Shown: positions 212 to 63,512 of the stretch, in pieces | Layout of the letters: the number at the start of each line of letters is the position of its first letter | Numbering within the stretch: the stretch's first letter is position 1 | Origin: an uncultured Pseudomonadota bacterium | GTDB taxonomy: Bacteria > Babelota > Babeliae > Babelales > CAIQNR01 | Reading direction: 5' to 3' | Assembly (NCBI GenBank): GCA_964570505.1 | Contig: CAZMYL010000001.1 | Span: forward strand, 143,501 to 207,500 | DNA length: 64,000 bases | Notes under the pieces: model-generated | What the model saw: only the letters and a program-made list of their open reading frames with translations | What the model was told of the DNA's origin: nothing | Databases searched by the model: none | Position numbers and translations under genes: made by a program

Positions 212-1879
212 ATGAAAAAATATAAATATCTTGTTGTGCTGTATGCTGGTTTTATGATTATGAAGCTTAGCTCAGTTACTTATTTTGATATGATTGAAGA
301 TACTATTGCTTCAAACGTTCCTGTTGCGACTTCAACAAAAGTAGTTATTAATGGGTGTCCCTTGAATGTTACTGATATAAATGGAGTAAAAAAAAGTTCT
401 ACAGTGGCTATTACCCTTTATGTTGATCCTAATAATATTGTGAAAGAAATTGTTATTCCATATAAGAATTCCTCTTTAGATGAAGGTAATTTTGGTATTA
501 TTTGTGGTAATGTTCAAAAATCTATTACTCCAATTTTGAATAATACAGGTAATAAAAATTATTGCCCAAAAGAGAAGCCTTATAGTGCGCGTTATATTAT
601 GACGTGGAAGTCTAAAAAATATAAAAGTGCAGCAGAATGTAATAATATAGATTCTGACACCATTTTGTTTTTTAGTGACAATGATGAAATGCTTTTTGCA
701 ATAAAATTTGATGGAATAAATAAGTATTTAGGATTAAATAAATCAGAAATTACATTAAATGGTTTTCCTATAAGTATTGTAGAAATGGGTAAACGATCAA
801 AAAATAAAACTGATATATCTCCATTTATTAATGCCCCAGATGCTGATGGTCGTTTTAAATATCATTATGCTGTATATGGTAGTAACAGTTTATATAAAAA
901 AGTTTTAATTAAATACGGAGCAATACAAGGTCCTTTTGCAGATAGCGGTGTTTATTATAATGTTGTTACTTTCCCAAATAATAACATATTATCTGGTAAT
1001 AATTCTTCTGTGTGCGATCAGCTTATCATTTTTAATGATCAAACAGTTTGGGCAAATTATCAAAATTTACCATCTAAAGTGAGCGATTTTAATTTACAAA
1101 GTTTTTTAAATAATCTTCTTCCTAAAAAAAGTTTGAAGCCATGTCCTTCAGAAGTTCCTTATTTTATGCTTGATCAAAGTAGTATGATAAATAAAAATAT
1201 ATTTACTTTTATTATTGGATATGAAACTGAGACAAAAATTCAAGTATATGATTTTAATAAAATGGATGGATTGGTTGCTTATTCAAAAGATTATCAAGTT
1301 TCAGGGTCTACAGGTTATTATACTATTGTTGATGCTGTAACAAAACAAGTTAAAGAAGTTAGAAAATATACAGATATTAAAAAAAATACAACCACTTTTA
1401 TTCCTCCAAAATTAACAGGAATTGGGTCTGTTCTTAAAAATTCAGATAATGCCTATATAGGTATTGTTACAAGTCTTGATGGAATGATTATGACAGATAT
1501 TATTTATGCAGATGCGGATGCTAATTTCATTAATATATGGTCGATTGATAATTCAGATAATATGACTGCCAATTTGATTAGTGGATATGATAATGGTGTT
1601 TCTGTTAATGTCAGAGTTGAGGGTAATCAAATGGTTGCTACACTCACAACAGCTTCAGGTGTAAACACTAAAGTTGGAATGATGGTAAATTCTTCTGAAA
1701 GTTCTTCTTCTAGTCAAGGCGCAATGATGGAAAATGAATCTACTCTTACAGCTGCAGTAACTAAAGGAGTTGTTCCAGAATCAGCACTTACTTTTCAGGC
1801 TTTTCAAGAGAGGGTATCTAATTACGCATTTAAAAATGCGTATATTACTCCAACTGGTGAACGTTATATTTTATTTTAA
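212..1879 (+). CDS. hypothetical exported protein, 555 aa
   Basis: Long ORF with an ATG start. The N-terminus MKKYKYLVVLYAGFMIMKLSS looks like a signal peptide. Composition is N/S/T-rich, with a Ser run near the C-terminus, and the protein ends ...GERYILF. No family recognised. Confidence 0.7.
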   Translation: MKKYKYLVVLYAGFMIMKLSSVTYFDMIEDTIASNVPVATSTKVVINGCPLNVTDINGVKKSSTVAITLYVDPNNIVKEIVIPYKNSSLDEGNFGIICGNVQKSITPILNNTGNKNYCPKEKPYSARYIMTWKSKKYKSAAECNNIDSDTILFFSDNDEMLFAIKFDGINKYLGLNKSEITLNGFPISIVEMGKRSKNKTDISPFINAPDADGRFKYHYAVYGSNSLYKKVLIKYGAIQGPFADSGVYYNVVTFPNNNILSGNNSSVCDQLIIFNDQTVWANYQNLPSKVSDFNLQSFLNNLLPKKSLKPCPSEVPYFMLDQSSMINKNIFTFIIGYETETKIQVYDFNKMDGLVAYSKDYQVSGSTGYYTIVDAVTKQVKEVRKYTDIKKNTTTFIPPKLTGIGSVLKNSDNAYIGIVTSLDGMIMTDIIYADADANFINIWSIDNSDNMTANLISGYDNGVSVNVRVEGNQMVATLTTASGVNTKVGMMVNSSESSSSSQGAMMENESTLTAAVTKGVVPESALTFQAFQERVSNYAFKNAYITPTGERYILF

Positions 1880-1914
1880 TGTATAAATTTTATTAATAAT
1901 GAGGATTAAAAGGT

Positions 1915-4900
1915 ATGAAATATTATTTAATAGTAGCTCTTTTGAGTTTATATTCTGATATTCATACCTTTACTGTTACAACTCAATCAAAAACACCAGT
2001 AAATACAACAAATCAATTATCAAATACTTCATCTTCAAATATTGTTGCTCTATCTACAACTTCTTCTGGTTTAAATTCTAATTCTCAAAATAGTTCTACA
2101 CAAAGTGCTCTTACTTTAAATTCTGGTGCTGTAAAAAATAATTCAAAAGTTGTAAAGCAGTGGAGCGTAAAATTAAATGATTCTGATATTCCTAGTTTAT
2201 ATACGAGTCCTGAATTTATAACTGTACAAAAAACTGTGTATCAACTTTCTCAATTGATGAATTCATTGATTGGAAATTTTAAATCAGTTCAACAACAAAA
2301 TAATCAAATTATATGGTCTGTAACCGCTCAATCGTCATCTGATACATTAAAAAATTCGAATCAAAATGCAATAAATTCTCAAGGATTTGATTATGTTAAA
2401 ACATATAGTACTTTTCAGTCTTATATGTCTGGGCAAAGTACCTCTTTTGTAGCTTCTTTTCAAAGTGTTTATACTATTTATCAAAATTTATTTCCCACAT
2501 TTAAAGAGTATATGCAAAGTAGTGGTAAAGAGGTAAGTGCAACATCTCAAGCTTATTTTACTAAGCTGCCATTTCAAAAAGATTCATATACAATTACATT
2601 ATTGCAATCAATAAGTTCTGCAATTATTAAATATTTGACTGCTCGAGCATCGCTTATATCTGTTCAAAATTATATTCAAAATAATGGATCATCAGATCTT
2701 TTTGGTTCATCTGGAGCATTTCAATATGGCGATATAATTATGTCAGCACTTAAAAAATTTATGGACGAAGAATATAAAAAAGTTACTTCTCTTCAAGGAT
2801 TAACAGCTGAAGAAAATGTTGAATTACAATCATATTATAATCTTATTTTTTCTGATTATATAAAACAAAAAAATACCCTTCTTATTCAAACAGTAGTTAA
2901 GCTTTTAAAATCATTATCTTATAAAAATCAAAGTAATCTTGTGAGTATCAATACTAATAATCAGCCTATTGCAACTAATGAATTGGAAATTTTTGTTAAT
3001 AATGCAGTTACCGCTGCTCAGGCTTATAATTCATTGAGCGAAGAAACAATTCAAAATAAATTTTTAGAGTACGATTCAATTGATAATGCATTAATAGAGA
3101 TTCATAGTCTTCTTGCTGATTTGTATTGTTTTAATAGCAAAATTCTTTTATTAAATATAGAAAAATCTGCTCAAGAAAGTGGTGATTTACCTTATTCAAT
3201 TAATGATAAAGATCAAATTCAGTTTCAAACAACTCTGCTTAATGCTTTTTATCTTTTTCAAAAAATGATTTATCAGGCTGCTCAACATGCTTCTTTGGCT
3301 AAAAAATCAGACTTATATACACTTTATAGTGGTCAATCGGCAATGGCAGAAAGTATTATTATTAATTGGCAAAATGGACAATCTTCATATGCAGTTCAAT
3401 CATATTCTAATGCACTATCTTATTTTAATGCTGTTTTAAGCGCTTCTCAAAAATATCAACTTACTTATTGTGTTAATTATATTATTAGCATTATTCAAAA
3501 AATTAATTTGGAGTATGAGCAAACTTTGTTTGGTTTGTATGTACAAAATCCTTCTTATATTTCAGCGCTTTCAACATATATTGATCATGCCTTATCGACT
3601 AATGTATCTACATATGAAGAAGATCAGGCTTTATGGTGTTCAATTTGGTATCCAGATGCTTCTCCTGTTGCGTCTTCCGTAAAAAATTCAAATATCTATC
3701 AAGGTTTTTATTTATTATCAACATCTGCGGTTCAAACAATTCAAAGTATTTTAGCAAGTGCTCAAACTAATCAATTAAAGCTTTCTGAAGAAAAAATTAT
3801 TGATTTGCAATATGCTGTTAAAACATTAAATTTTTTAGTAGCAGGTCTTCAGGAAATGCTTGTTCAAAGTTCTTTGTTTCCAGATAAGCAATCTGCGGAC
3901 GCTAATATGTATGTTAATTATTATACGCCAGCAGGGTATAGAAAGGTTCATACACAATATCAATCTATTATTAATGCTTTTGATGGAATTGATAAAGTTT
4001 ATCAAGAGTCTGCAACTGATACATTGAATTCTTATTGTCCTTTGCAATCTTTATTAGTAAATCAAAAAAATATTTCTAATTTTGGCATGCTTGCTCGTCT
4101 TCATTATGCACGATGGGCTTTTTGTATGGGTATGTATGCAATTAAATATGCATCAAACAAAGATTGTTTAAAAGATAAAACATGTATTGTATATCAAAAT
4201 ACAGCATATCAGTATGCATTATGCGCTCTTGTTGATGCTCAAAATATATACGCAGGTTTGGGGCAAAAAGCTATTGTTAATTATATTGAAGATCAAATTT
4301 TATCTATAAAAATGTATGCATCTGGATTGCTTAATACTGCAGACTTAGTTGTATCATCAGAAAATTCAAATATGTCAGATACCTCATGGTATGATGCATT
4401 ATATTATACACAAGTTGCTGCAGCAGTAGATTCTTCAGTATATGGTAATGAATATATTAAAAGGCTTGAAGATCTAATTAAAAAAGAAACTTCTAATATT
4501 TTTAAAAGAACGATTCCCGATATTTATAAAGCATATCTTCTTTACCAAGGGTATATTTGGGCTTTATTTATTAATGATAATCTTTTAAAAAATAGTTATG
4601 CATCGCAACTACAAAAAACTCTTGATGCATCTGTGATTGCTGTTAATGCTTTACAGAATCAGTCACAATCAAAAGATAATAGTTTGTTGAATATTGAAAA
4701 AATCAAAGAATTGCAAAAAATTCAGAATATTTTAGAAATTTTTGCTGTAAATCAGAACTATCAAAAAGGTATTTTTATCACGAGCGGAAATGATTTTATT
4801 ACTATTGCTGAAAATAAAGTGGTTGGAAGTTCTATTTTAAATAAAAAAATAACATTTTTTGGCGGTTCTACTCTCTTTTTATCCAATATAGATTATAGCT

Positions 4901-7374
4901 TAGCACAGCTTTATGTAAGTCAGGCAAATACAATCCTTCTTCAAATTCAAGATTATTTTAATGGTAAAGAGTATGATAAAATTACTGATGATTTGTTTCT
5001 TAAAATGATTGGTTATTATAACAATGCAATAGAAAATTATAGTAAATTAGGCCTTTCAAATAATGTAATTTCTACAAGTAAATTAGTAAGTCAGGCGATG
5101 GCTTTTTATTTTTATAGTTTAATAATTCCATCTGATTCTGTTACATCAGCAATTGATGCTCTTATGAAATCAAGTAGCTCAACTGCTGTTAAAAAAACAG
5201 GTTTAATTATAAAAAATATGGGATCTTTTGTTAAAGATGAAAATAAAAATTTTATGAATCAATCTTTATATATTTTACGTTATGCACAACAAGATTTACA
5301 AAATTTTAAAGAAATTGCAGATGAAAATGTTGCGAATTTTCAAAAACAAACTGACTCAAGTTTGTTAAATAATGCTTTAGAACAACAAAAATTTTATGTA
5401 AAAATGATAGAAGTTGCAAAAGGATTTGTAGGTTCGCAGGATTATAAAGGAATTCTTAAAGAGTTAGTAATTCCTTTGTATAAATCAACATTAGTAAATT
5501 CTGGATATAAACATATTTTTAAAACGATTGATAATGAAGTTCAGGATTATGCAGGACAAATAGAGATGCTGATAGATAAAGGAATATCTATTGGTGGCAC
5601 AATTTTAAAAACAAAATTTGTAGTAGATCAGCAAAAAAATACTGATGGGTCTGTTTCGCTTATATTAAAATCATATAATATTCCAACTTCTGCAGTTCCT
5701 CAATTTACAGGGGATATTATGAGTGCTTTGGTTGTTTATACGCAATATCAAAATTTTTTTCAGCAAACAGCTCAGCCTGTGCAAACAAGTAGTGGTGTTT
5801 TTTCTGCTATTCCAGATCAAAATTCATATAAAAAAGCTCAATATTTAATAAATGAAACTTATATTTCTGCAGCAAATAGTTACAATAATAAATTGTTAAA
5901 ACTTATTGATCCTTTAAAAAATATTCAAAATAAAACAGAAAAAAGATTTGATGATTATGCAGCAAGTTATTCTTTGGTGAATGATATATATCAAGAAATT
6001 TTTGCTTATTATTCTGTTCTTGATCAGGTTCAAAAAGCAACGAGTATAATTTCTTATGATGTTTCTGGACTCTATGTGAAAAAATTTCAAGCATATAGTG
6101 AAGATTTGCAATATTTCTTGATAGGTGATCCTTCTTCTCCTGACTATATTAAACGAGTTATAGAATCTGCTATGGCATATTTGTTGATATCAAATTATAC
6201 ATCAGATACTACTACGTGGAGTCAAATGCATAAAAAAGCTGGAGATCTTTATAAAAAAACAGCTGATTTAGCTTATACTTATACTATTTCTGCTCCATCT
6301 TATAATGGATATCCAAGTAAATCTGCTCATAATTTTCCAAAAAAAGGCGATTCTTTTAAGGTTCCATCATCATTAATATGTGAAAATTTTGTAGCATCTG
6401 CAGATCCATCGTCACCAATTATTTTTTATGCGTATCAAGATGCTCAAGGGTATTATCAGCAAGCTTTACAAAACTACCGCCAGTCATATGCATTGTTACG
6501 CAATAATCAATCAAAAGGAGAAATGACTGATTCATCAATTATGACTTGTTGGTCTTTGTATCTTATAGCTGGAATTAAAAATGCAATTCAGCGTATAGGA
6601 TTATTTTCCAGAAATGCTTTTGAACCAATTGGAACTTCAATATTGTGTGATTTTTCTAGTGATTTTATTAAGTTGCAATCTGAAGGTAAAAATAATGGAT
6701 TTTCATCTGCGCAACAAGGGTATTCTTCGTTAGCAGGAATGGGAAATCAGTTAACAAATAATTATGTAGGCAAACAGTATGCTATTATGAAAAAATTATT
6801 AATTGATTCATTAATTTATCTTTCTGGTGCAATTAATATTTGTAATTCGTTATCTAAATCTTTGGGAATTTCAACGGCTACAATTGTTGATAAAAAACTT
6901 GGAGCATCATATTTCTGTGCTCTCGCTCGTTATTTTCCTACATTAACTTGTATGACAGGATCGGATCTTTCAGGATTGCTGCTTTCAAAATATATATCAA
7001 ATCCAGCAGGGCTTTCGATTTCAGCAGATTTAAATATACAACAACAATATGCATTTTTATATTCAGATAGTTTTATTCAAACTCATGATTATATAATTAA
7101 TTCGTTATGTGGTAATCAAACTACAATGTCTACCAAAATGAAAATGCCAGAAAATGTTGTAGCTATGGCAAGTTACATATCGCAACTTTTTGGAATGGTG
7201 CGTACGGTCTATGCAAATGCATTTTTACCGGAATTGGTAAAGGCGGTTGATGATGCTGGTGCAACTGGCAAACCTGTAGCTTCTGCTGTTTCTGCATTAC
7301 AACAAAGTATTAATACAGATGTCACAACAGCTCAACAAAATATGTTAATAGATTCATCAGGATACGTTGGTTGA
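1915..7374 (+). CDS. giant exported protein, 1819 aa, no recognisable domain
   Basis: 5.46-kb uninterrupted ORF starting 35 nt after the previous gene. Signal-peptide-like MKYYLIVALLSLYSDIHTF is followed by an S/T/N/Q-rich ~60-residue linker and then a Q/N/S/Y/A-rich body. No catalytic or repeat motif seen. Confidence 0.8.
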   Translation: MKYYLIVALLSLYSDIHTFTVTTQSKTPVNTTNQLSNTSSSNIVALSTTSSGLNSNSQNSSTQSALTLNSGAVKNNSKVVKQWSVKLNDSDIPSLYTSPEFITVQKTVYQLSQLMNSLIGNFKSVQQQNNQIIWSVTAQSSSDTLKNSNQNAINSQGFDYVKTYSTFQSYMSGQSTSFVASFQSVYTIYQNLFPTFKEYMQSSGKEVSATSQAYFTKLPFQKDSYTITLLQSISSAIIKYLTARASLISVQNYIQNNGSSDLFGSSGAFQYGDIIMSALKKFMDEEYKKVTSLQGLTAEENVELQSYYNLIFSDYIKQKNTLLIQTVVKLLKSLSYKNQSNLVSINTNNQPIATNELEIFVNNAVTAAQAYNSLSEETIQNKFLEYDSIDNALIEIHSLLADLYCFNSKILLLNIEKSAQESGDLPYSINDKDQIQFQTTLLNAFYLFQKMIYQAAQHASLAKKSDLYTLYSGQSAMAESIIINWQNGQSSYAVQSYSNALSYFNAVLSASQKYQLTYCVNYIISIIQKINLEYEQTLFGLYVQNPSYISALSTYIDHALSTNVSTYEEDQALWCSIWYPDASPVASSVKNSNIYQGFYLLSTSAVQTIQSILASAQTNQLKLSEEKIIDLQYAVKTLNFLVAGLQEMLVQSSLFPDKQSADANMYVNYYTPAGYRKVHTQYQSIINAFDGIDKVYQESATDTLNSYCPLQSLLVNQKNISNFGMLARLHYARWAFCMGMYAIKYASNKDCLKDKTCIVYQNTAYQYALCALVDAQNIYAGLGQKAIVNYIEDQILSIKMYASGLLNTADLVVSSENSNMSDTSWYDALYYTQVAAAVDSSVYGNEYIKRLEDLIKKETSNIFKRTIPDIYKAYLLYQGYIWALFINDNLLKNSYASQLQKTLDASVIAVNALQNQSQSKDNSLLNIEKIKELQKIQNILEIFAVNQNYQKGIFITSGNDFITIAENKVVGSSILNKKITFFGGSTLFLSNIDYSLAQLYVSQANTILLQIQDYFNGKEYDKITDDLFLKMIGYYNNAIENYSKLGLSNNVISTSKLVSQAMAFYFYSLIIPSDSVTSAIDALMKSSSSTAVKKTGLIIKNMGSFVKDENKNFMNQSLYILRYAQQDLQNFKEIADENVANFQKQTDSSLLNNALEQQKFYVKMIEVAKGFVGSQDYKGILKELVIPLYKSTLVNSGYKHIFKTIDNEVQDYAGQIEMLIDKGISIGGTILKTKFVVDQQKNTDGSVSLILKSYNIPTSAVPQFTGDIMSALVVYTQYQNFFQQTAQPVQTSSGVFSAIPDQNSYKKAQYLINETYISAANSYNNKLLKLIDPLKNIQNKTEKRFDDYAASYSLVNDIYQEIFAYYSVLDQVQKATSIISYDVSGLYVKKFQAYSEDLQYFLIGDPSSPDYIKRVIESAMAYLLISNYTSDTTTWSQMHKKAGDLYKKTADLAYTYTISAPSYNGYPSKSAHNFPKKGDSFKVPSSLICENFVASADPSSPIIFYAYQDAQGYYQQALQNYRQSYALLRNNQSKGEMTDSSIMTCWSLYLIAGIKNAIQRIGLFSRNAFEPIGTSILCDFSSDFIKLQSEGKNNGFSSAQQGYSSLAGMGNQLTNNYVGKQYAIMKKLLIDSLIYLSGAINICNSLSKSLGISTATIVDKKLGASYFCALARYFPTLTCMTGSDLSGLLLSKYISNPAGLSISADLNIQQQYAFLYSDSFIQTHDYIINSLCGNQTTMSTKMKMPENVVAMASYISQLFGMVRTVYANAFLPELVKAVDDAGATGKPVASAVSALQQSINTDVTTAQQNMLIDSSGYVG

Positions 7375-7439: not shown

Positions 7440-8069
7440 TTAGTCTAAGCATTCTACGGCTGTGGATCTAATTGTGTGAAATTTATATGATTCTTGAAAT
7501 TTATTTAATGCAGCTTGTTTATTATATAATTTCGTTGACTTAATTTTTTGAGGTTTAATTGTCGATCTAATTTTTTCAAATTCATCGAATGCAGCTTCTT
7601 TATTATCATATGCAAGTGTTAAAATTTTATAACGTTGGCTCATTGAAAAATCTTTGAATGAATTATAATTTTCTTCAGATGCTAATATTTTATATAAACA
7701 ACAAGGATGAACGGGTAGAAGTACTACTTCTTGTTCAATTCTCAGTGAAGAGTCTTTAAGTAACTTATAAACTTTAGATGTTAATAAGTTATATACAGAA
7801 GAAGACTTATATACACAAGAAGAACGAACGGGTGAAAGCATCTCTCCAGTTGCCAGTATTATTTCATCCAACCAAGGAAAAGAAACGGATAGACGCACTA
7901 CTTGTTCTTCAAAAAAAACTTTTTTAATTTTTCTTCCAATATCAAGCAGATCTTGATCTGAAGGAAGATAAGCTTGTTTCCATAGAAAATTTGGAACACC
8001 TCTACTAGCGTTTTCTATTCCTTGACATTTTCCTTGAAATAATACTAATAATGCAATTATTTTTTTCAT
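7440..8069 (-). CDS. hypothetical exported protein, 209 aa
   Basis: ORF with N-terminus MKKIIALLVLFQGKCQG (signal-like). It is preceded by conserved upstream module copy A. No family recognised. Confidence 0.6.
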   Translation of the reverse strand: MKKIIALLVLFQGKCQGIENASRGVPNFLWKQAYLPSDQDLLDIGRKIKKVFFEEQVVRLSVSFPWLDEIILATGEMLSPVRSSCVYKSSSVYNLLTSKVYKLLKDSSLRIEQEVVLLPVHPCCLYKILASEENYNSFKDFSMSQRYKILTLAYDNKEAAFDEFEKIRSTIKPQKIKSTKLYNKQAALNKFQESYKFHTIRSTAVECLD

Positions 8070-8120
8070 AAATAATCCCCCTTGATAAATTAATTAACGA
8101 AATAATTTTCAGATATGATT

Positions 8121-8146
8121 ATATATAGGGGGGGTAAAAGTCAAAT
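8121..8146 (-). promoter_or_regulatory. conserved upstream module, copy A (TTGACT, C7 tract, TATATA/TATAAT on the coding strand)
   Basis: On the minus strand it reads ATTTGACTTTTACCCCCCCTATATATAAT, about 55-75 nt upstream of the 8069 start. The G7 run at 8128-8134 is one of only two runs of 7 or more G in the window. Related modules sit at 21147-21188 and 24478-24522. Confidence 0.4.
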
Positions 8147-19253: not shown

Positions 19254-20579
19254 ATGAAAAAGTTGAATAAAGTTGTCATTATTGGAAGAACAAATGTAGG
19301 AAAATCAACTCTTTTTAATCGTTTGTCTACTTCAGTTAAAAGTATGACACTTGATTATATGGGTGTTACTCGAGATTTTATTTCTGACACTGTTAGTTGG
19401 AAAGATAGATCATTTGAGTTAATTGACACAGGTGGTATTGATTTTAAAAAAGGTCTCGATTTTTTAACAGAAGCGATTCGTGAAAGAGCTGTTCAAGTAC
19501 TTGAGTCATCAGATGTTGTTCTTTTTGTTGTAGATGGAGCAGCTGGAGTTACGTCAGAAGACCAAACATTAGCACGTTTTGTACATAAGCTTAAAAAGCC
19601 TACATTGTTACTTATTAATAAAGGCGATAGTCATGCTGCTCAAGAAAATGAAAGTGAATTTATAGCACTTGGCTTTGGTTATCAAAATACTATTTTAATT
19701 TCTGCACAGCATGGTACTGGTATAGCTGATATTTGTGAAGGTATTTTAGCAAATCTTCCAGCGCAGGAAGATATTCCAGATGAAGAGCCAGGATATAAAG
19801 TAGTTTTGCTTGGAAAGCCAAATGTTGGAAAATCATCATTAATGAATGCTCTTTTGCAAAGAGATAGATCATTAGTTTCTGATATTGCAGGCACAACTCG
19901 AGAAGCAATTCGTGACCGTATGCATTTTTATAAAGAAACGATTGAAGTTGTTGATACTGCTGGAATTCGCCGTCAAAGATCAGTTGATGAAACTATTGAA
20001 GAAATGATGGTAAGAACATCATTTGGTGCAGTAAGAGATGCAGATATTGTTTTATTACTTATTGATGCTCATGAAGCACAACTTGCTCATCAAGAACTTA
20101 AACTAGCATCATATGTTTTTGAACAAGGTAAAGCGCTCATTATTATTCGTAATAAACATGACTTGGTTGATGAAGATATTCAAGAGCAGTGGAAATACGA
20201 TACCGAAGAATATGATCATTTACTACGAAAAATAGAGGTACTTACTGTTTCATGCACAACTGGTCATAATATTGGAAAAATTTTACCGCTTGTTAAAGAA
20301 GTTTGGGAGCGTTATACACATAATTTTTCAGCTGCTTATTTAACAATGATTTTTAAAGATGGTTTAGAGCGAACGCCGCTTTATCATAATAAGCATAGGC
20401 TTAAGATGTTCTCTGCAAAACAAGTTGGTATTAAACCTCTTTTAATCCGTTTAAATGTTAATGAGCCAGATTGGTTTGAAAGTAGCCAGCAAAACTTTTT
20501 TGAAAATCTTTTGCGTAAAGATTATAACCTTAAGAGTGTTCCGGTTAAGTTTAATTTACGAAGAATGTTTTTTGATTAA
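19254..20579 (+). CDS. der: ribosome-associated GTPase Der (EngA)
   Basis: Two tandem GTPase domains (GRTNVGKSTLFN...DTGG...NKGD and GKPNVGKSSLMN...DTAG...NKHD) plus a KH-like C-terminal domain. Confidence 0.9.
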   Translation: MKKLNKVVIIGRTNVGKSTLFNRLSTSVKSMTLDYMGVTRDFISDTVSWKDRSFELIDTGGIDFKKGLDFLTEAIRERAVQVLESSDVVLFVVDGAAGVTSEDQTLARFVHKLKKPTLLLINKGDSHAAQENESEFIALGFGYQNTILISAQHGTGIADICEGILANLPAQEDIPDEEPGYKVVLLGKPNVGKSSLMNALLQRDRSLVSDIAGTTREAIRDRMHFYKETIEVVDTAGIRRQRSVDETIEEMMVRTSFGAVRDADIVLLLIDAHEAQLAHQELKLASYVFEQGKALIIIRNKHDLVDEDIQEQWKYDTEEYDHLLRKIEVLTVSCTTGHNIGKILPLVKEVWERYTHNFSAAYLTMIFKDGLERTPLYHNKHRLKMFSAKQVGIKPLLIRLNVNEPDWFESSQQNFFENLLRKDYNLKSVPVKFNLRRMFFD

Positions 20580-20612
20580 TTGTTGAATAATACTAGTATA
20601 TATTTGATATTT

Positions 20613-20656
20613 AGATAATAAAAAAGCCTCTGTTATAAGAGGCTTTTTTATTATCT
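20613..20656. terminator. bidirectional hairpin terminator between der and the convergent 144-aa gene
   Basis: AGATAATAAAAAAGCCTCT GTTATA AGAGGCTTTTTTATTATCT: a 19-bp perfect stem with A/T runs on both sides. Confidence 0.75.
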
Positions 20657-20664
20657 AAGATAGT

Positions 20665-21099
20665 TTAGTTGGTTTTAGAAAGTTCATTTTTTTGTTTTTG
20701 GATTTCTTTATCAGGCATTAATTGAGCATTAAAAGCTGCAATTGCTTCTTTAGAAACACTTGTTAATATTTCTTTAGTCTTTCCTATTCCATAATCTCTG
20801 TCATATGAGCGTGGATGAATTTTTGTCATATCTTTCAAGTCAATATGCATAGCTCGGCCATTGATATAATCGCAGTGGCCATTCCAAGATTTTTCTGTAA
20901 ATATTTGTTTTGCTTCTTGTGCAGTTGAAATATTTGGTTGTGCATGCAAAAATCCCAAACCCATAGGTTGAGCATAATTATATAAAAGCATAAAGGCATG
21001 ATATTGCGACATACCTTCTGGCGCGCTAAAACTTTGAGATTCTGATCCATATGTTGAACTTACTATGCAAGTTAAGAGTAATAAGTTTAATTTTTTCAT
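20665..21099 (-). CDS. hypothetical exported protein, 144 aa
   Basis: Signal-like MKKLNLLLLTCIVSSTYG. It lies inside the segment bracketed by the duplicated der 3' ends and is preceded by upstream module copy B. No family recognised. Confidence 0.6.
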   Translation of the reverse strand: MKKLNLLLLTCIVSSTYGSESQSFSAPEGMSQYHAFMLLYNYAQPMGLGFLHAQPNISTAQEAKQIFTEKSWNGHCDYINGRAMHIDLKDMTKIHPRSYDRDYGIGKTKEILTSVSKEAIAAFNAQLMPDKEIQKQKNELSKTN

Positions 21100-21146
21100 A
21101 CATTGCCTTATTATATTGAGAGATTAAAATATATTTCTAAGTAAAA

Positions 21147-21188
21147 GTATATCAGGGGGTAAAGTCAAATTCTTTCTTTATTAGATTT
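21147..21188 (-). promoter_or_regulatory. conserved upstream module, copy B (TTGACT, C5 tract, TGATATACT)
   Basis: The minus strand reads AAATCTAATAAAGAAAGAATTTGACTTTACCCCCTGATATAC(T). TGATATACT matches the extended -10 form seen at other genes here. Nearly identical to copy C apart from tract length. It lies about 50-90 nt upstream of the 21099 start. Confidence 0.5.
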
Positions 21189-21203
21189 ATGCAACCGTGC
21201 TTG

Positions 21204-21240
21204 AAGTCTTTTAAATATCTTCATAATATTTAAAAGACTT
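21204..21240. repeat. palindromic repeat element, copy H1
   Basis: AAGTCTTTTAAATAT CTTCATA ATATTTAAAAGACTT: a perfect 15-bp stem with a 7-nt loop. Related copies are at 22132-22167 and 23491-23548. Confidence 0.7.
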
Positions 21241-21304
21241 ATTTTTATTTAAATGAGCAGAAAACCCCAAGTTTTTTTAAAACTGGGGATGAATGGTCAT
21301 CCTT

Positions 21305-21416
21305 ATTGGTTTGAAAGTAGTCAGCAAAACTTTTTTGAAAATCTTTTGCGTAAAGATTATAACCTTAAGAGCGTTCCGGTTAAGTTTAATTTACGTAGAA
21401 TGTTCTTTGATTAATT
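21305..21416 (+). pseudogene. orphan duplicate of the der 3' end (last 36 codons plus stop)
   Basis: The 112 bp align without gaps to der 20470-20581 (offset 835) with 4 mismatches. All four are synonymous in the der frame. No der body lies upstream. An ATG at 21289 creates a 41-codon relic ORF. Confidence 0.8.
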
Positions 21417-21441
21417 TTTAATATTTATATACTACTTACAA

Positions 21442-21469
21442 ATAAAGGCCTCTTTAAAGAGGCCTTTAT
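21442..21469. terminator. bidirectional hairpin terminator
   Basis: ATAAAGGCCTCTTT/AAAGAGGCCTTTAT is a perfect palindrome lying between the der relic and the stop of the convergent 175-aa gene. Confidence 0.65.
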
Positions 21470-21471
21470 AG

Positions 21472-21999
21472 TTATTTATTAATAATTGAAGATACAACAG
21501 AAATAAAATCTGGTTGGTAATATGGTAATTGAGGTCTTTCTAAACAATCTAATGTCAAATCTGTATGTATTGATAATGTTTCAATTTCTTCTGCTTTTAT
21601 TTTTATATATTCTAATTGTGCATTTTCTTGATTATTGCCATCTTGAAGATGTGTTGCACGTATTTCTATATCTATATTATCATATAAAAATAAAATTTGT
21701 TTTCTATGAAATTTAAAATAACGATAATATGTTGAAAATGATCCAGAAGATATATATTCTTTCATTTTTTTAAAATTATATAAAGTATAATAAATGTGAT
21801 GGGCCATAGAATCTCTTTTTTTATCATCACATAGATTTGCTAAATTAAGATAAAGAGCTGTATTTTTCTGTATTAACTCAATATCTTGTGTGTGCCACGA
21901 GATTAAAAAATTCCGTTTGTCTTTCTCAGATACATGCATTTGAGGAGAGCATTGATTTTGTGAAAAAATAAGAAATAATAAAAATGATTTTTTTGTCAT
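21472..21999 (-). CDS. hypothetical exported protein, 175 aa
   Basis: ORF with a hydrophobic N-terminus MTKKSFLLFLIFSQNQCS. No family recognised. Confidence 0.5.
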   Translation of the reverse strand: MTKKSFLLFLIFSQNQCSPQMHVSEKDKRNFLISWHTQDIELIQKNTALYLNLANLCDDKKRDSMAHHIYYTLYNFKKMKEYISSGSFSTYYRYFKFHRKQILFLYDNIDIEIRATHLQDGNNQENAQLEYIKIKAEEIETLSIHTDLTLDCLERPQLPYYQPDFISVVSSIINK

Positions 22000-22131
22000 A
22001 TTGTTCTTTTTTGAAATATATTTTGATATAAATCTTTGCGCTATAATAAGTGATATTTTATAGTATAATTTCTACAATGCAATTTTAAATAATTGAAATA
22101 ATGATTTGTGGCAGAATGTTGTAATGTTTTT

Positions 22132-22167
22132 TATGAGCAAAAAATAAGTCTTTTAAATATGATGAAG
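22132..22167. repeat. left direct repeat / half-copy (H2) of the palindromic element
   Basis: TATGAGCAAAAAATAAGTCTTTTAAATAT (22132-22160) recurs at 23491-23520 with one extra A. The following GATGAAG is the reverse complement of the H1/H3 loop CTTCAT(A/C). Confidence 0.65.
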
Positions 22168-22283
22168 TCAAATGTTGCCTAGTCATGAATTTTACGACAT
22201 TTTTTGTTTTATGATTAAGTTCAATAGAAGATAATTTATGTACATAATGATGTGATATATAAAAGTTAAAAAGAATTTTTAAC

Positions 22284-22313
22284 TTGACATAGTTCTCATT
22301 ATCCTTGTATTTT
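22284..22313 (+). promoter_or_regulatory. sigma-70-type promoter candidate for the ATPase gene, with operator-like repeats
   Basis: TTGACA (22284-22289), an 18-nt spacer, then TATTTT. A 10-bp-arm palindrome AAGTTAAAAA-GAA-TTTTTAACTT (22263-22285) overlaps the -35. TTCGAATTT occurs twice (22312 and 22325) just downstream of the -10. Confidence 0.45.
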
Positions 22314-22355
22314 CGAATTTAGAGTTCGAATTTTCAATGATAATAAGGATTATAA

Positions 22356-23495
22356 ATGAATAGAGAAAAATATTTAGCTTTAATTGAGCGACAATTTAAT
22401 GTGCATCCTGTATGTGCTATTCTTGGTCCTCGCCAGGTGGGAAAAACAACACTTGCTCACCTTTATAGTCAGCAGAAGTATAAAAATGATGCTATTTTTT
22501 TTGATTTAGAAAATCCAGAAGACTTGGCTCGATTAAGTAATCCTATGCTTGCACTCAATGGGGTGTCTCAATATTTGATTGTTATTGATGAAATTCAGTT
22601 AAGGCCAGATTTATTTCCTATACTTCGTGTGCTTGTTGATGATAAAGGTTTTAATCATAAGTTGCTTATTTTGGGTAGCGCATCTCGTGATCTTATCAGT
22701 CAATCGTCAGAAACGCTTGCAGGTAGAATTGGTTATTTAGAGTTAACGCCATTTATGCTTTTTGAAGTTCATGACATGAGTAGGCTTCTCCTTCGTGGGG
22801 GCTTTCCACGTTCTTATTTAGCATTATCTGATCAAGATAGTTATGAGTGGCGTAAAAGTTACGTTATGACATTTTTAGAGCGAGATATTCCAAATTTTGG
22901 TTTTTCTATTCCTGCGCAACAGCTGCGTCGTTTTTGGATGATGCTTGTGCATTATCATGGTCAAGTTTTAAATTATAGTGAGCTTGGGCGGTCTATGATG
23001 CTTTCTGACAATACTATCAAAAAATACATAGAAATTTTAGCAGGGACTTTTATGATTCGTTTGCTCTATCCATGGTTTGAAAACATTGGAAAGCGACAGG
23101 TTAAAGCGCCCAAAATATATATTCGTGATACGGGGATTTTTAATTTTTTAGTGGGTATGTCTACTTATGATGCAATGATGTCTCATCCTAAACTGGGAGC
23201 GTTATGGGAGGGGTTTGCGCTTGAAGAAATAATCTCAGTTCTTGGTTGTGCACAGGAAGAAGTATTTTTTTGGGCAACTCATGCGGATGCAGAACTAGAT
23301 TTATTTGTAGTAAAAGATGGAAAACGTTTAGGTTTTGAATGTAAATATTCTGATGCCCCAAAAACTACAAAATCAATGCATAGTGCAGTTGAAACATTAC
23401 ATTTAGATCATTTATATGTTATTTATCCCGGTAAGCAGCAGTATGGTTTGACTGAAAAAATTACGGTTTTTGGACTTGAAGTCTTTAAAATATGA
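22356..23495 (+). CDS. AAA+ ATPase of the AAA_14/DUF4143 type
   Basis: 379 aa with Walker A GPRQVGKTTLA and Walker B LIVIDEIQ. The C-terminal half has the DUF4143-like pattern (…LERDI…, …LYPWFENIGKRQVKAPKIYIRDTG…), typical of the widespread stand-alone ATP-binding protein family. Confidence 0.75.
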   Translation: MNREKYLALIERQFNVHPVCAILGPRQVGKTTLAHLYSQQKYKNDAIFFDLENPEDLARLSNPMLALNGVSQYLIVIDEIQLRPDLFPILRVLVDDKGFNHKLLILGSASRDLISQSSETLAGRIGYLELTPFMLFEVHDMSRLLLRGGFPRSYLALSDQDSYEWRKSYVMTFLERDIPNFGFSIPAQQLRRFWMMLVHYHGQVLNYSELGRSMMLSDNTIKKYIEILAGTFMIRLLYPWFENIGKRQVKAPKIYIRDTGIFNFLVGMSTYDAMMSHPKLGALWEGFALEEIISVLGCAQEEVFFWATHADAELDLFVVKDGKRLGFECKYSDAPKTTKSMHSAVETLHLDHLYVIYPGKQQYGLTEKITVFGLEVFKI

Positions 23496-23548
23496 GCAAA
23501 AAAATAAGTCTTTTAAATATCTTCATAATAGTTAAAAGACTTATTTTT
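23491..23548. repeat. right direct repeat plus full palindromic element (H3); probably also the terminator of the ATPase gene
   Basis: TATGAGCAAAAAAATAAGTCTTTTAAATAT contains the ATPase TGA stop. AAAAATAAGTCTTTTAA ...15 nt... TTAAAAGACTTATTTTT forms a 17-bp perfect stem (23500-23548), followed by T-rich sequence. Confidence 0.7.
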
Positions 23549-23569
23549 ATAATTTTTGTTTATGGTCTA

Positions 23570-24367
23570 TTATTTTATAGCGGAAACGTCTTTTGAATAT
23601 TTTCGTACTGCTTTAAGAACATCAGCAACTGTTGAGGCATAAAGACAACTATGTGTTTTGGGTTGCGCTGCATCTGTATAACGTTTTTCAAAAGGAGTTA
23701 AATGTTCAGTAGACGGACATTTAGATTTTTTTAAATTTTCTACCATCTTTTGCATATCATTAAGAACAGAATCTTGAGTAGATGGAATATCTGCGCGTGT
23801 TAAAGATTCAGCTATTTTATTAGCATTTCCTAAGATTCTTAAAGCAGGATTTTTACAAAAAATGCCATTGACTTGAAAATCTGATTTATTACCAATAGTT
23901 TGTTCTTTTTCTGAAAGGGTAGAAAAAATATATGCGTAGTATCTGAGTAGAGCATTCATTTCGAGATTAAAATTTTCACGTGCTATCTCATATGAATCAT
24001 TTTTATGATATCGTGATGAGTTTAAGAAACTATGAAAACTACCTATTGTTTCTTGAAAATTACCAAGAATTGTACCCATAGGATTTTTATGAAAATTATT
24101 TAAATTAAGCTCAACATCTACATGATACATAATTTCATCAAAAAGAAGAGCATATTCACCTTGTTGAAATTTAGGGATATTTTGATCGATGAGGTGACCA
24201 TATTTTTTCATTAAGTTTTGTAGGTGTTTATTGCAATCAATAGGCTGTCCTGTTAAAGGATGTACTGGCACTCCTAAATTGGTATGGGTAGCTTGTTTAT
24301 TTGATTCGGATGCATCGATGCCGTTGATGCAAGATAATAAAATAGTAAGTATTAATAATTTTTTCAT
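23570..24367 (-). CDS. hypothetical exported protein, 265 aa
   Basis: Signal-like MKKLLILTILLSCINGIDA. Preceded by upstream module copy C. No family recognised. Confidence 0.6.
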   Translation of the reverse strand: MKKLLILTILLSCINGIDASESNKQATHTNLGVPVHPLTGQPIDCNKHLQNLMKKYGHLIDQNIPKFQQGEYALLFDEIMYHVDVELNLNNFHKNPMGTILGNFQETIGSFHSFLNSSRYHKNDSYEIARENFNLEMNALLRYYAYIFSTLSEKEQTIGNKSDFQVNGIFCKNPALRILGNANKIAESLTRADIPSTQDSVLNDMQKMVENLKKSKCPSTEHLTPFEKRYTDAAQPKTHSCLYASTVADVLKAVRKYSKDVSAIK

Positions 24368-24477
24368 TTTGAGCCTTTAGTTAAAAATTTAAACCTATTA
24401 ATTCAATTGAGAATGAGTTTTTCTTAAAAAATCACTATAATTGAATTAATAAAAAGCAATATATTACAAATAGAAGT

Positions 24478-24522
24478 GTATATCGGGGGGGGGTAAAGTC
24501 AAATTCTTTTTTTATTAGATTT
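24478..24522 (-). promoter_or_regulatory. conserved upstream module, copy C (TTGACT, C9 tract, GATATACA)
   Basis: The minus strand reads AAATCTAATAAAAAAAGAATTTGACTTTACCCCCCCCCGATATAC. The G9 run at 24485-24493 is the longest G/C homopolymer in the window. It lies about 110-155 nt upstream of the 24367 start. Confidence 0.45.
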
Positions 24523-24627
24523 TTGTAATAGGCTTATAAAAATAAAAATAAGGTTTTTACAAAAGACAATTTTTTAATTTTATATACTCTGAGTTTTTAT
24601 TCGATATATAACTTTTTAAGGATAATA

Positions 24628-45369: not shown

Positions 45370-45394
45370 TATGTATAGAAAGATGGGGTTATCT

Positions 45395-46114
45395 ATGAAA
45401 AAATTTTTATTGTTATTATGCGTTTCGCTTTGCGCAACCCGTGTTTACTGTGCTCCCACTGATGATAAATATAGTTGGCTTACAAGGCTTGGTATGTTTT
45501 TAAGAAATAGTCCTCAGCAAATTTTGACACAGTTAAAACAAGAAAATTTGTATACTGATTTATGGCTAGAAGAATTACCTGCTCCAGAAGGTATCGTATA
45601 TAGAGTATATCGTATTATTAAGGTAAGTAATGAATTGTCGATAGCTTTTCATGTAGGAAATATATTTATTGGCGATGATGGTATTAGTGTTCGTACTGAG
45701 ACTTTTGGGGGACAAGTATTAGATCATGCTCAGCAAGCCGAAGTAGATTGTGAAACAATTATAAGGTGTATTGCATGGAATCGTCCTCCGCAGCAATTTA
45801 TTGAATTTTTGAGGAAAGTTTTTTCTAAAGAATTAGATAGTAAAACAATGACAGAGATTCAAAAGCAATTGTATAATATAAAAAACCCTGAGGAGAGCAA
45901 AGGATTTGTTTTTACGCAAAACAAAAGGTGTAACTCAATTATTGATGAAGAATTAGCTCAAGCTGCTCAATGTGGGCAACGGATGATGGTTAGAGTCGCT
46001 GCAAAGGCTGCAGCTCTTTATGGATTGTATTCTTTAAGAAATGAAATTGCTACAGGTGTTAAAAATGGTACTTCATCTCTTGTGGCTGCAGTTGCAAGTG
46101 GACTAGGTAAGTAA
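45395..46114 (+). CDS. secreted/tail-anchored paralogue 1 of a three-gene tandem family
   Basis: MKKFLLLLCVSLCATRVYCA signal peptide. The C-terminus ...AALYGLYSLRNEIATGVKNGTSSLVAAVASGLGK is shared with the next two genes, and the middle is divergent. The track start is 45371. Confidence 0.7.
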   Translation: MKKFLLLLCVSLCATRVYCAPTDDKYSWLTRLGMFLRNSPQQILTQLKQENLYTDLWLEELPAPEGIVYRVYRIIKVSNELSIAFHVGNIFIGDDGISVRTETFGGQVLDHAQQAEVDCETIIRCIAWNRPPQQFIEFLRKVFSKELDSKTMTEIQKQLYNIKNPEESKGFVFTQNKRCNSIIDEELAQAAQCGQRMMVRVAAKAAALYGLYSLRNEIATGVKNGTSSLVAAVASGLGK

Positions 46115-46139
46115 TGATATATGGCTTAAGAGGTTATCT

Positions 46140-46880
46140 GTGAAGAAATTTTTATTGTTAGTATGTATTTTTGTTTGTGCAACTCGTGTTTACTGTGCTG
46201 CCACTGATGATAAATATGGTTGGTTTACAAGGCTTGGTATGTACTTAACAAAGAGTCCTCAGCGAATTGCGAAAGAGTTAAGAAAACAACGTTTGTATAC
46301 TCATTTATTGATAAAAAAATCTTCCGAAAATTCTGAATATCCAAGAAAATCTAATGGTTATCATTTATATCATTTTTTTGAAAATAGTAATGTTGGTATA
46401 TCGAAAAGAATGATAGTTGAACAATATGGTACTGTTGATGTTGAAGAATCTTCTGGGTTCTATATCGTTAACCCTAAAGAATTTCAAGAAAATTCTAGCT
46501 TAATAATATCTACTATTGCGCTGTATTATCCTCAGAAATTTATTAGTTTTTTGAGAGAAGTTTTTTCTGAAAAAGATTCTACTTTAGACGACTTCTCTAA
46601 AAGCAACAGTTGGGCTGAAATCTGTCGGAAAAAGAAAATAGATACGCTTGATTATAGTGCACAGCAACAGATTATTAGTGAAAATAATAAAAAGTGTAAC
46701 TCAATTATTGATAAAGAATTGTCTCGAGCTACTCAATGTGGAGTTGCTGCAACGGTTGGAGTTGCTGCAGCGGGTGCAGCACTTTATGGATTGTATTTTT
46801 TAAGAAATGAAATTGCTACAGGTGTTAAAAATGGTACTTCATCTCTTGTGGCTGCAGTTGCAAGTGGACTAGGTAAGTAA
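46140..46880 (+). CDS. secreted/tail-anchored paralogue 2
   Basis: GTG start 6 nt after SD AAGAGG. MKKFLLLVCIFVCATRVYCA signal peptide and a Gly/Ala-rich hydrophobic C-terminal segment. Identical to paralogue 3. Confidence 0.7.
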   Translation: MKKFLLLVCIFVCATRVYCAATDDKYGWFTRLGMYLTKSPQRIAKELRKQRLYTHLLIKKSSENSEYPRKSNGYHLYHFFENSNVGISKRMIVEQYGTVDVEESSGFYIVNPKEFQENSSLIISTIALYYPQKFISFLREVFSEKDSTLDDFSKSNSWAEICRKKKIDTLDYSAQQQIISENNKKCNSIIDKELSRATQCGVAATVGVAAAGAALYGLYFLRNEIATGVKNGTSSLVAAVASGLGK

Positions 46881-46905
46881 TGATATATGGCTTAAGAGGT
46901 TATCT

Positions 46906-47646
46906 GTGAAGAAATTTTTATTGTTAGTATGTATTTTTGTTTGTGCAACTCGTGTTTACTGTGCTGCCACTGATGATAAATATGGTTGGTTTACAAGGCT
47001 TGGTATGTACTTAACAAAGAGTCCTCAGCGAATTGCGAAAGAGTTAAGAAAACAACGTTTGTATACTCATTTATTGATAAAAAAATCTTCCGAAAATTCT
47101 GAATATCCAAGAAAATCTAATGGTTATCATTTATATCATTTTTTTGAAAATAGTAATGTTGGTATATCGAAAAGAATGATAGTTGAACAATATGGTACTG
47201 TTGATGTTGAAGAATCTTCTGGGTTCTATATCGTTAACCCTAAAGAATTTCAAGAAAATTCTAGCTTAATAATATCTACTATTGCGCTGTATTATCCTCA
47301 GAAATTTATTAGTTTTTTGAGAGAAGTTTTTTCTGAAAAAGATTCTACTTTAGACGACTTCTCTAAAAGCAACAGTTGGGCTGAAATCTGTCGGAAAAAG
47401 AAAATAGATACGCTTGATTATAGTGCACAGCAACAGATTATTAGTGAAAATAATAAAAAGTGTAACTCAATTATTGATAAAGAATTGTCTCGAGCTACTC
47501 AATGTGGAGTTGCTGCAACGGTTGGAGTTGCTGCAGCGGGTGCAGCACTTTATGGATTGTATTTTTTAAGAAATGAAATTGCTACAGGTGTTAAAAATGG
47601 TACTTCATCTCTTGTGGCTGCAGTTGCAAGTGGACTAGGTAAGTAA
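46906..47646 (+). CDS. secreted/tail-anchored paralogue 3 (identical copy of paralogue 2)
   Basis: Identical 246-aa translation and, as far as I can read, identical nucleotides at a 766-nt offset. Confidence 0.7.
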   Translation: MKKFLLLVCIFVCATRVYCAATDDKYGWFTRLGMYLTKSPQRIAKELRKQRLYTHLLIKKSSENSEYPRKSNGYHLYHFFENSNVGISKRMIVEQYGTVDVEESSGFYIVNPKEFQENSSLIISTIALYYPQKFISFLREVFSEKDSTLDDFSKSNSWAEICRKKKIDTLDYSAQQQIISENNKKCNSIIDKELSRATQCGVAATVGVAAAGAALYGLYFLRNEIATGVKNGTSSLVAAVASGLGK

Positions 47647-58139: not shown

Positions 58140-58220
58140 TGATGAGTATCAAATTGTTGGCACTACAAAAGCCTATTTTAGTGAGAAAGAGATTTTGCAG
58201 TCATTTGTAAAATAATTAAG
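58140..58220 (+). pseudogene. orphan perfect copy of the murE 3' end (last 24 codons, stop and 5 nt)
   Basis: 81/81 identity with 63362-63442 (offset 5222). An in-frame TAG lies upstream at 58120-58122 and there is no start codon, so it is not expressed as murE. Confidence 0.85.
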
Positions 58221-58359: not shown

Positions 58360-59901
58360 ATGTTATTTAAGAAATTTTTTTTATTATTTTCTATTTGTGG
58401 TAATTATAAAGATCCTGTAAAAAGTGAACCTTTAGAATGTTCTGAAAACAGTAAAACTTCTGATTCTCCTTATTTAAGACGTATTCCAAGAGATCCTATT
58501 ACATATTTTCAATTCAAATTTGCAACAGAAAACGAAAAGGCTATAAATTATGAGAGAAGTTTAAAAAAATCAGTCGTTCCTGGCTATGATTTTACTGACT
58601 TATATGTAAAAAAAGAAAAAGAATTTATAGAAAATGATGGTGGTATTTATGCTTCTGCATTTTGTCAATTATTGATAAGCCGATCTGTTTCTGTTACGGG
58701 AAAAAGTCAATTACATAATATAGTAAGCCCAGTAAATGTTTATACATTTAAAAACAGGCCTGATACTCGAGCTTGTGCATATTTTCATACAATATGGTTT
58801 AAGGAATCTAGTTTGAAAAGAACATCTTTGTCTGAAAATTGTTTTACAGCATTGCATGAACTTCATCATATTATACACGGTGATTATAGAAGTAACAAAA
58901 GCATGTATAATCATTTTAATGATAGGTTTTCTACAGAGGAATCATATTCAAAATATATAGAATATAGTGCTGATGTAGGCGCTTTAGAGTATATGGGTTC
59001 AGCTGCAGCTATTAATGAAGTAGCTGAAAAATGTCCTGATGATTATAATTCAAGTAATGGTTATTTAAATAAAAAACAATATATGGAATTTGCTAAAGAA
59101 GCGCGAAAACAAGAAGATCAGTTTAAAGCTAATTTTTCCTATAATGATATGATTTTGCAACAAAAAGAATTTACACAAGATGATTTAAATCAATTTAAAT
59201 TTAACAATACAACTAAAAAAGAGTTGCTCCAAGATCAAGAAGAACATGCAGCGTATATGAAAAACTTGTCTTCTGATAATGATAATAATAATGAATTTCA
59301 AGCAGTTAATGATCGTAAAATGACGATGCTTTTAGCAATCCAAAAAAAATTACATATTGAAATTCAATTATTTGATATTGATGAAGAAAATAATGATCTG
59401 AAAAACAAGCTTTATATAAAATTATTGCATATTCATTCTATGCTAGAAGAGTCGGGATATATTAATCAAAAAGTGTATTCTGATGAATTTTATTATAATG
59501 GTCCTTCTTATATTGATAAAGAAAATAATGATCTGAAAAACAAGCTTTATATAAAATTATTGCATGTTAACTCTATGCTAGAAGAACATGCGTATATTAA
59601 TGCAAGAGTGCATTCGGATCAATTTCAGTATCAATATCCTTCTGATGTTAATGCTGAAGAGCTTAAAAAAAGATCATTTAATGATTTAAAAGGCAACCAA
59701 GATAAAAGTGAGCGATGGTTATTATCTAATTTATTTGCAGCATTGCAATATAATAATTTAGATAAATTAGAAGTTGATCTTAATTGGGTTGATCTAGAAA
59801 TAACAAAAGCTAATTTAGAACGTAATCAAGAAGAAGTTGAAAGACTTAAATGTATTAAAGCAAATTATGAAGAGCAGATTGAGAGTCTAAAAGGTAGTTA
59901 A
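58360..59901 (+). CDS. hypothetical HExxH-motif protein (putative zinc metalloprotease) with a coiled-coil/repeat C-terminal half
   Basis: 513 aa with a hydrophobic N-terminus MLFKKFFLLFSICG. ALHELHHIIHGD contains HExxH. There is a 45-aa internal tandem repeat, and the C-terminus is rich in E/K/N/L heptads. Confidence 0.65.
   Translation: MLFKKFFLLFSICGNYKDPVKSEPLECSENSKTSDSPYLRRIPRDPITYFQFKFATENEKAINYERSLKKSVVPGYDFTDLYVKKEKEFIENDGGIYASAFCQLLISRSVSVTGKSQLHNIVSPVNVYTFKNRPDTRACAYFHTIWFKESSLKRTSLSENCFTALHELHHIIHGDYRSNKSMYNHFNDRFSTEESYSKYIEYSADVGALEYMGSAAAINEVAEKCPDDYNSSNGYLNKKQYMEFAKEARKQEDQFKANFSYNDMILQQKEFTQDDLNQFKFNNTTKKELLQDQEEHAAYMKNLSSDNDNNNEFQAVNDRKMTMLLAIQKKLHIEIQLFDIDEENNDLKNKLYIKLLHIHSMLEESGYINQKVYSDEFYYNGPSYIDKENNDLKNKLYIKLLHVNSMLEEHAYINARVHSDQFQYQYPSDVNAEELKKRSFNDLKGNQDKSERWLLSNLFAALQYNNLDKLEVDLNWVDLEITKANLERNQEEVERLKCIKANYEEQIESLKGS
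59386..59655 (+). repeat. internal tandem repeat, 2 x 135 nt, within the HExxH gene
   Basis: ENNDLKNKLYIKLLH(I/V)(H/N)SMLEE... occurs twice. The first 45 nt of each unit are identical (GAAAATAATGATCTGAAAAACAAGCTTTATATAAAATTATTGCAT). Confidence 0.8.
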
Positions 59902-63437: not shown

Positions 63438-63512
63438 TTAAGAGCTTATCTAAAAACTAAATGTTCTTGAGAATAATGATCTGGAAGAACATTTGAACAA
63501 ATAATTGTATAT

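Follow-up and report, generated by a model that had tools for sequence, protein, structure and literature searches.

Three copies of a short module, in which a run of C residues separates a TTGACT hexamer from a -10-like hexamer of the form TAnnnT, lie on the minus strand of the 64,000-nucleotide stretch of DNA analysed here (hereafter the window). We lean, with a little more than even confidence, towards reading this module as a duplicated sigma-70 promoter whose slippage-prone poly-C spacer tunes expression. The Der GTPase encoded in the window has its best named homologues in Candidatus Babeliales / Dependentiae, and the host is an amoeba-associated bacterium of the Babeliales/Dependentiae (TM6). 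Members of the Dependentiae live inside the cells of amoebae and other protists; they are widespread and mostly uncultured. To our knowledge, almost nothing is known of gene regulation in the group.

Anatomy and rarity of the module

All three copies conform to the pattern TTGACTTT(T)A-Cn-(T/G)ATATA, where n is 7 in copy A, 5 in copy B and 9 in copy C, and all were located on the minus strand where an earlier note on this DNA had placed them. The copies and their parts are as follows.

24478-24522, minus strand: module copy C, AAATCTAATAAAAAAAGAATTTGACTTTA-C9-GATATAC, continuing after C9 as GATATACACTTCTATTTGTAATATATT
24497-24502, minus strand: -35-like hexamer TTGACT of copy C
24485-24493, minus strand: poly-C tract of copy C, C9 (G9 on the plus strand); C8 in the SRR32119641 strain
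24475-24480, minus strand: -10-like hexamer TACACT of copy C, 16 nt after TTGACT (15 nt in the C8 strain)
24458-24467, minus strand: box GTAATATATT of copy C, with the counterpart GAAATATATT in copy B
21147-21188, minus strand: module copy B, AAATCTAATAAAGAAAGAATTTGACTTTA-C5-TGATATAC, continuing after C5 as TGATATACTTTTACTTAGAAATATATT
21163-21168, 21155-21159 and 21144-21149, minus strand: TTGACT, C5 and TACTTT of copy B, with a spacer of 13
8121-8146 (8118-8146 with the -10), minus strand: module copy A, CCCATTTGACTTTTA-C7-TATATATAAT, continuing after C7 as TATATATAATCATATCTGAAAATTATT
8139-8144, 8128-8134 and 8118-8123, minus strand: TTGACT, C7 and TATAAT of copy A, with a spacer of 15

Tract length apart, copies B and C share 93-97 % identity over 34-40 nt, and they can be aligned for about 75 nt, beyond the tract and up to a common box, G[A/T]AATATATT. 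The box (GTAATATATT in one copy, GAAATATATT in the other) may mark either the transcript start or the -10 element (TATATT) of an alternative promoter. Copy A follows the layout of the B/C alignment more loosely. In every case the module lies 5' of a gene in the same orientation, at a distance of 56-118 nt. The tract is the sole hypervariable part of a module that is otherwise 93-97 % conserved, its length being 5, 7 or 9 among the paralogous copies.

A fourth ATTTGACTT site, this one with no C tract, is found at 22146-22171 on the minus strand; a gene encoding a 175-aa protein lies about 170 nt downstream of it. It is joined to a half copy of a palindromic repeat (see below) and may be a disrupted relative of the module.

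The G+C content of the window is 30.1 %. As the earlier note had stated, no other G/C run of at least 7 nt is present: the G7 and G9 of copies A and C are the sole such runs in the window, where 0.32 runs of at least 7 nt and 0.01 of at least 9 nt are expected (first-order Markov model, analytic). The pattern TTGACT-N2-6-CCCC matches the three modules only, as against 0.07 matches expected in the 64-kb window. The three-copy observation is real and lies well beyond chance. Contingency loci are usually recognised by over-long tracts of at least 7-8 G/C; C9 and C7 reach such lengths and the C5 of copy B alone falls short. Short runs are also unevenly distributed between the strands, with 13 G runs of at least 5 nt on the plus strand of the whole window as against two C runs of that size.

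Scans for the module motif in collections of genomes and metagenomes that do not contain the host species gave 24 matches among 185,579 species genomes (596 Gb) and 58 among JGI/ENA metagenomes, and IMG/VR viral contigs yielded two more, none of them a relative of the module. In every case the match comes from an unrelated taxon and is an ordinary promoter look-alike of the form TTGACTTT...TATA whose C run is C4-C6. The earlier note had allowed that the module might prove to be the end of a dispersed repeat present at non-promoter positions. Instead, there are only three copies in 64 kb, all 5' of genes, and none was found in the other organisms scanned. A dispersed repeat or MITE with a promoter-like end was rejected on the same grounds, namely the absence of non-promoter copies from the window and of any copy from the genome, metagenome and viral scans.

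Promoter geometry and the proposed role of the tract

The window encodes RpoD, which in regions 2.4 and 4.2 agrees with E. coli sigma-70 at the DNA-contact motifs, so that recognition of TTGACA/TATAAT-type promoters is to be expected. The signature TTGACW-N15-18-TANNNT has six matches in the window. Five of the six lie between genes and are oriented towards the neighbouring gene, in a window of which only 9 % is intergenic (binomial p ~3e-5), and copies A and C are among these five. Judged by its placement, TTGACW-N15-18-TANNNT behaves as a promoter signature of the host genome. Its 6 matches are half of the 12 expected from shuffled sequence, a deficit suggestive of selection against spurious promoters.

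The three copies were registered on the ATATA that follows the tract. In this common register the -10 candidates are TATAAT (A), TACTTT (B) and TACACT (C), with T1, A2 and T6 kept throughout, and the spacers between TTGACT and TAnnnT measure 15 nt in A, 13 nt in B and 16 nt in C. A generic promoter scan likewise gives TTGACT-16-TACACT for copy C. The earlier note had been troubled by a spacing of only 11-14 nt, a worry that arose because it used TATAC as its register and that vanishes with the other -10. None of the three copies has the optimal spacer of 17 nt, which would be reached with C9 in copy A, C9 in copy B and C10 in copy C. The reading of the module as a probable promoter is supported by its geometry, by a canonical RpoD, by a genome signature found at upstream positions and by the match of A and C to it; at the level of sequence this support is good. 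Readings as a sigma-28 or ECF promoter were rejected because their motifs are not common to all copies: copy C has a likeness to the sigma-28 -10 element in its CCGATA, where copy B reads CTGATA, and copy A lacks both a CGA and the GAAT element.

In the model that we prefer, the module has been placed before three unrelated, lineage-specific genes for exported proteins. TTGACT would serve as the -35 element and the TAnnnT hexamer 4-5 nt past the tract as the -10, with the poly-C run making up most of the spacer, and transcription would start from here. Because a G/C homopolymer slips in replication, the length of the spacer would shift and, with it, the strength of the promoter; such changes would be frequent and reversible. 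Copy C, at 16 nt, would be near-optimal and the most active of the three. Copy A, and copy C in the C8 strain, both at 15 nt, would be weaker. Copy B, at 13 nt, is predicted to be nearly silent and, at C5, effectively locked.

Sequences from a second strain bear on this model. The organism is present in two Logan assemblies, SRR16481186, which matches the window at 100 % identity over 4.6 kb, and SRR32119641, which represents a second strain 99.5-99.9 % identical to the window. The earlier note had proposed looking for differences in tract length between strains, and in these consensus sequences one copy of three differs: copy C has C9 in the window and C8 in the SRR32119641 strain, whereas both strains have the same C5 at copy B and three of three assemblies (two strains) have C7 at copy A. 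Over 12,018 aligned nt the window and SRR32119641 differ by 31 substitutions and by two single-base indels, one being the C9/C8 change at copy C and the other a T4/T3 change; all 86 of the A/T runs of 6-8 nt are the same in both strains. The longer a tract, the more it slips, and the increase is steep; a run of C5 falls short of hypermutable length, and a useful rate of slippage is not expected of it. The change at copy C and the constancy of A and B fit this steep dependence on length. The C9/C8 difference is a single one at consensus level and could conceivably be a sequencing or assembly error. The contig that spans the tract (L027) is continuous through it, so no strong heterogeneity within the sample is evident. 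Tuning of expression by tract length is plausible, with C9/C8 as its one supporting data point.

The same data can be read differently. The module could be an ordinary promoter that was copied along with gene insertions and whose C run drifts slowly as a passive remnant; the lengths 5, 7, 8 and 9 would then be rare neutral indels or assembly noise, with no part in switching or tuning. We regard this as rather improbable. It would account for the sameness of copies A and B in all assemblies, for there being a single 1-nt difference overall and for the lack of within-sample branching at the tract, and C5 and C7 are indeed at or below the lengths usually held to be hypermutable. It is harder to reconcile with a C9 run that composition leads one to expect 0.0004 times, with the tract being the only variable part of the module, and with the location of the change in the longest G/C run, given that none of 86 A/T runs had altered.

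Copies B and C also contain, downstream, a second and tract-independent promoter candidate, (C/T)(C/T)GATA-16/17-TATATT. This raises the question of whether the core promoter lies beyond the tract, with xxGATA abutting the tract and a TATATT -10 within the AATATATT box; TTGACT(TTA) would then be an activator site or upstream contact, and the tract would set its distance or helical phase. The GATATAC and AATATATT boxes are conserved between B and C and stand 16-17 nt apart whatever the length of the tract, and a promoter of this kind would explain how gene B could be expressed at C5. Similar tract placement is known from meningococcal opc (PMC7864442) and nadA (PMC2791445) and from sabA (PMC4081817). 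Nevertheless we consider this arrangement unlikely, since its -35 candidates are poor (3-4 of 6 positions matching), copy A has no good equivalent and no candidate regulator was identified, whereas TTGACT fits the genome's own signature, which is enriched at real promoters.

Hardly credible, finally, is a role for the C run in the mRNA leader, as an anti-Shine-Dalgarno element or through reiterative transcription from a start upstream of the tract: although the C7 of copy A pairs with a GGGGG Shine-Dalgarno in the minimum-energy fold, shuffled sequence folds just as well (z = -0.42), the ribosome-binding sites of B and C are AAGG and their tracts unpaired, no consistent promoter is found upstream of TTGACT across the three copies, and Rfam has no match here.

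Downstream genes and their genomic setting

The three modules precede the following genes.

7440-8069, minus strand: gene A, encoding a 209-aa exported protein with no Pfam family match
20665-21099, minus strand: gene B, encoding a 144-aa orphan exported protein
23570-24367, minus strand: gene C, encoding a 265-aa exported protein with distant homologues only (27-32 % identity)

The earlier note had described the downstream genes as unrelated genes with signal peptides and this proved correct, the N-termini being signal-peptide-like in all three and the proteins having no similarity to one another. Its further idea that the module is dedicated to secreted proteins finds no support: many other signal-peptide genes have no module, and three of three gives p ~0.05, a result that is weakly informative because about 22 of the roughly 55 genes of the window start with such a peptide.

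An indexed homologue search with proteins B and C returned self-matches only. Distant homologues of protein C were found in an exhaustive search, and the region upstream of the best of them (P0127) contains neither the module nor a G/C run of at least 6 nt. Against Pfam, protein C produces a borderline match to DUF713, just under the curated cut-off. Its AlphaFold model is a confident all-alpha fold (pLDDT 83), for which a Foldseek search of the PDB gave no analogue (best E = 0.16, TM < 0.2). The family, homologue and structure searches that were run provided no functional clue for proteins A, B or C.

Some features of the leaders and of neighbouring genes may be recorded here. The leader of gene C contains a long imperfect hairpin at 24398-24449 on the minus strand (TTAATTCAATT...AATTGAATTAA), which could be an operator or attenuator, and as a whole it folds better than shuffled sequence (z = -2.0). 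The Shine-Dalgarno of gene A at 8077-8081 is unusually G-rich (AAGGGGGA) and is complementary to the gene's own C7 (8128-8134). Over the whole window, Rfam matches were to tRNAs only. Two large orphan genes, encoding proteins of 555 aa and 1819 aa with signal-peptide-like N-termini, occupy 212-7374; neither has a Pfam match and the 555-aa protein has no NCBIfam match either. At 45371-47646 a gene for a signal-peptide protein of about 246 aa, also with no Pfam match, is tandemly triplicated, the copies at 46140-46880 and 46906-47646 being 100 % identical and the third 47 %.

Modules B and C share a genomic setting, the elements of which are listed here.

20581-24627, no strand assigned: lineage-specific island between der and nhaC, with no counterpart in the nearest relative
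21301-21419, plus strand: duplicate of the 3' end of der, 96 % identical to 20470-20584
21204-21248, no strand assigned: 45-nt palindromic repeat (AAGTCTTTTAAATATCTTCATAATATTTAAAAGACTT...), 16 nt upstream of module B
23506-23550: second copy of the palindromic repeat, just downstream of gene C, 98 % identical to the first
22146-22160: half copy of the palindromic repeat

The nearest relative, whose Der is 95 % identical at the protein level and 83 % at the DNA level and whose G+C content is 37 %, has der followed by one small gene and then by nhaC; after nhaC it has an HPF (S30AE) gene that the window does not. Homology between the two ends at 20580 and restarts at the start codon of nhaC at 24628, which defines 20581-24627 as a lineage-specific island. 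This island of about 4 kb contains gene B, the gene for the 175-aa protein, a DUF4143/AAA_14 ATPase gene and gene C, together with modules B and C. The island in which these two of the three copies lie is edged by the duplicated end of a gene and by a palindrome that looks mobile. In the syntenic loci of relatives (L090-L094) neither the module nor a G/C run of at least 6 nt is present, and the module is thus young, of species-level age, and was copied to positions before unrelated, recently gained genes.

The duplicated part of der is its last ~115 nt or so, and the two copies bracket the gene-B cassette, each being followed by its own terminator hairpin. The duplication looks like the outcome either of an insertion with a long target duplication or of Campbell-type integration. 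The palindromic repeat adjoins copy B and is not part of the module; the palindrome beside module B lies within a 66-bp segment that is missing from the SRR32119641 strain. One contig (L028) begins exactly 30 nt before the junction of this 66-bp indel, as expected for a branch in a k=31 graph, so that the sample may contain both indel alleles.

The pattern seen at der, duplication of a gene end, recurs elsewhere in the window. Here the 3' end of what is probably murE (62010-63437) has a perfect 81-nt copy (58140-58220 and 63362-63442) just upstream of a TTGACT-16-TATTCT promoter of an orphan gene (58360-59901) for an exported protein of 513 aa. Both 81-nt copies are followed by tRNA-Arg paralogues (CCT and TCT).

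Comparison with known systems

Tuning of surface or exported proteins by promoter homopolymers is well known, with examples in Neisseria, Bordetella, Helicobacter, Campylobacter and Treponema. The tracts of porA and opc are long, roughly 9-14, and the promoters of fim2 and fim3 in B. pertussis carry poly-C tracts. The nearest parallel to the present case is with tp0126 and tprE/G/J/L of T. pallidum, where G/C homopolymers are likewise found in the promoters of several genes for signal-peptide proteins in a host-dependent bacterium (PMC7864442). In tp0126 a poly-G tract lies between -35 and -10, and activity is optimal at 17 nt (PMC7864442). The arrangement assumed in our preferred model has been demonstrated by experiment in tp0126 and in N. 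meningitidis porA (PMC7864442). The T. pallidum tracts are of about 7-11 nt and the genes encode outer-membrane proteins (PMC7864442). Within-isolate variation in length and a reporter effect have been measured in T. pallidum; the counterpart here is one difference between strains in sequence. The two cases differ further in phylum, the present bacterium belonging to the Dependentiae, and in their genes: those of the window do not form a paralogous family but are unrelated orphans with a duplicated module of about 75 nt in common.

In N. meningitidis, porA has a poly-G spacer and opc a poly-C tract at its -35, and spacing sets transcription from high to none (PMC7864442). The likeness lies in a homopolymer in or beside the promoter spacer. 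porA and opc are single well-studied loci, whereas the window has one module repeated before three genes, with shorter tracts (5-9). Graded expression of surface proteins from promoter-proximal homopolymers is also described in a survey of homopolymeric tracts of B. pertussis (PMC1891110) and for the poly-T tract of H. pylori sabA (PMC4081817). In fim2/fim3 and sabA the homopolymer separates the core promoter from an activator or upstream site, an arrangement that matches a core promoter downstream of the tract and not the model preferred here.

The proposed promoter design, with its proneness to slippage, is well known from pathogens, and what appears to be new, within a limited literature search, is its occurrence in Dependentiae; that search, for Dependentiae in connection with homopolymers or phase variation, returned nothing relevant. 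Separately from the question of the tract, TTGACW-N15-18-TANNNT should be usable as a promoter signature for the host genome. More tentatively, and as a possibility to which we give limited credence, the module may be a portable, tract-tunable promoter cassette that travels with newly gained genes for exported proteins and gives an obligate intracellular parasite of protists true contingency loci. If so, these would be the first contingency loci in the phylum, as far as the limited literature search shows. If the tracts do switch or tune expression, exported and probably host-facing proteins of Dependentiae would be under the control of stochastic contingency loci, pointing to host-range or immune-like selection similar to that acting on animal pathogens, and the three downstream orphan proteins would become candidates for interaction with the host.
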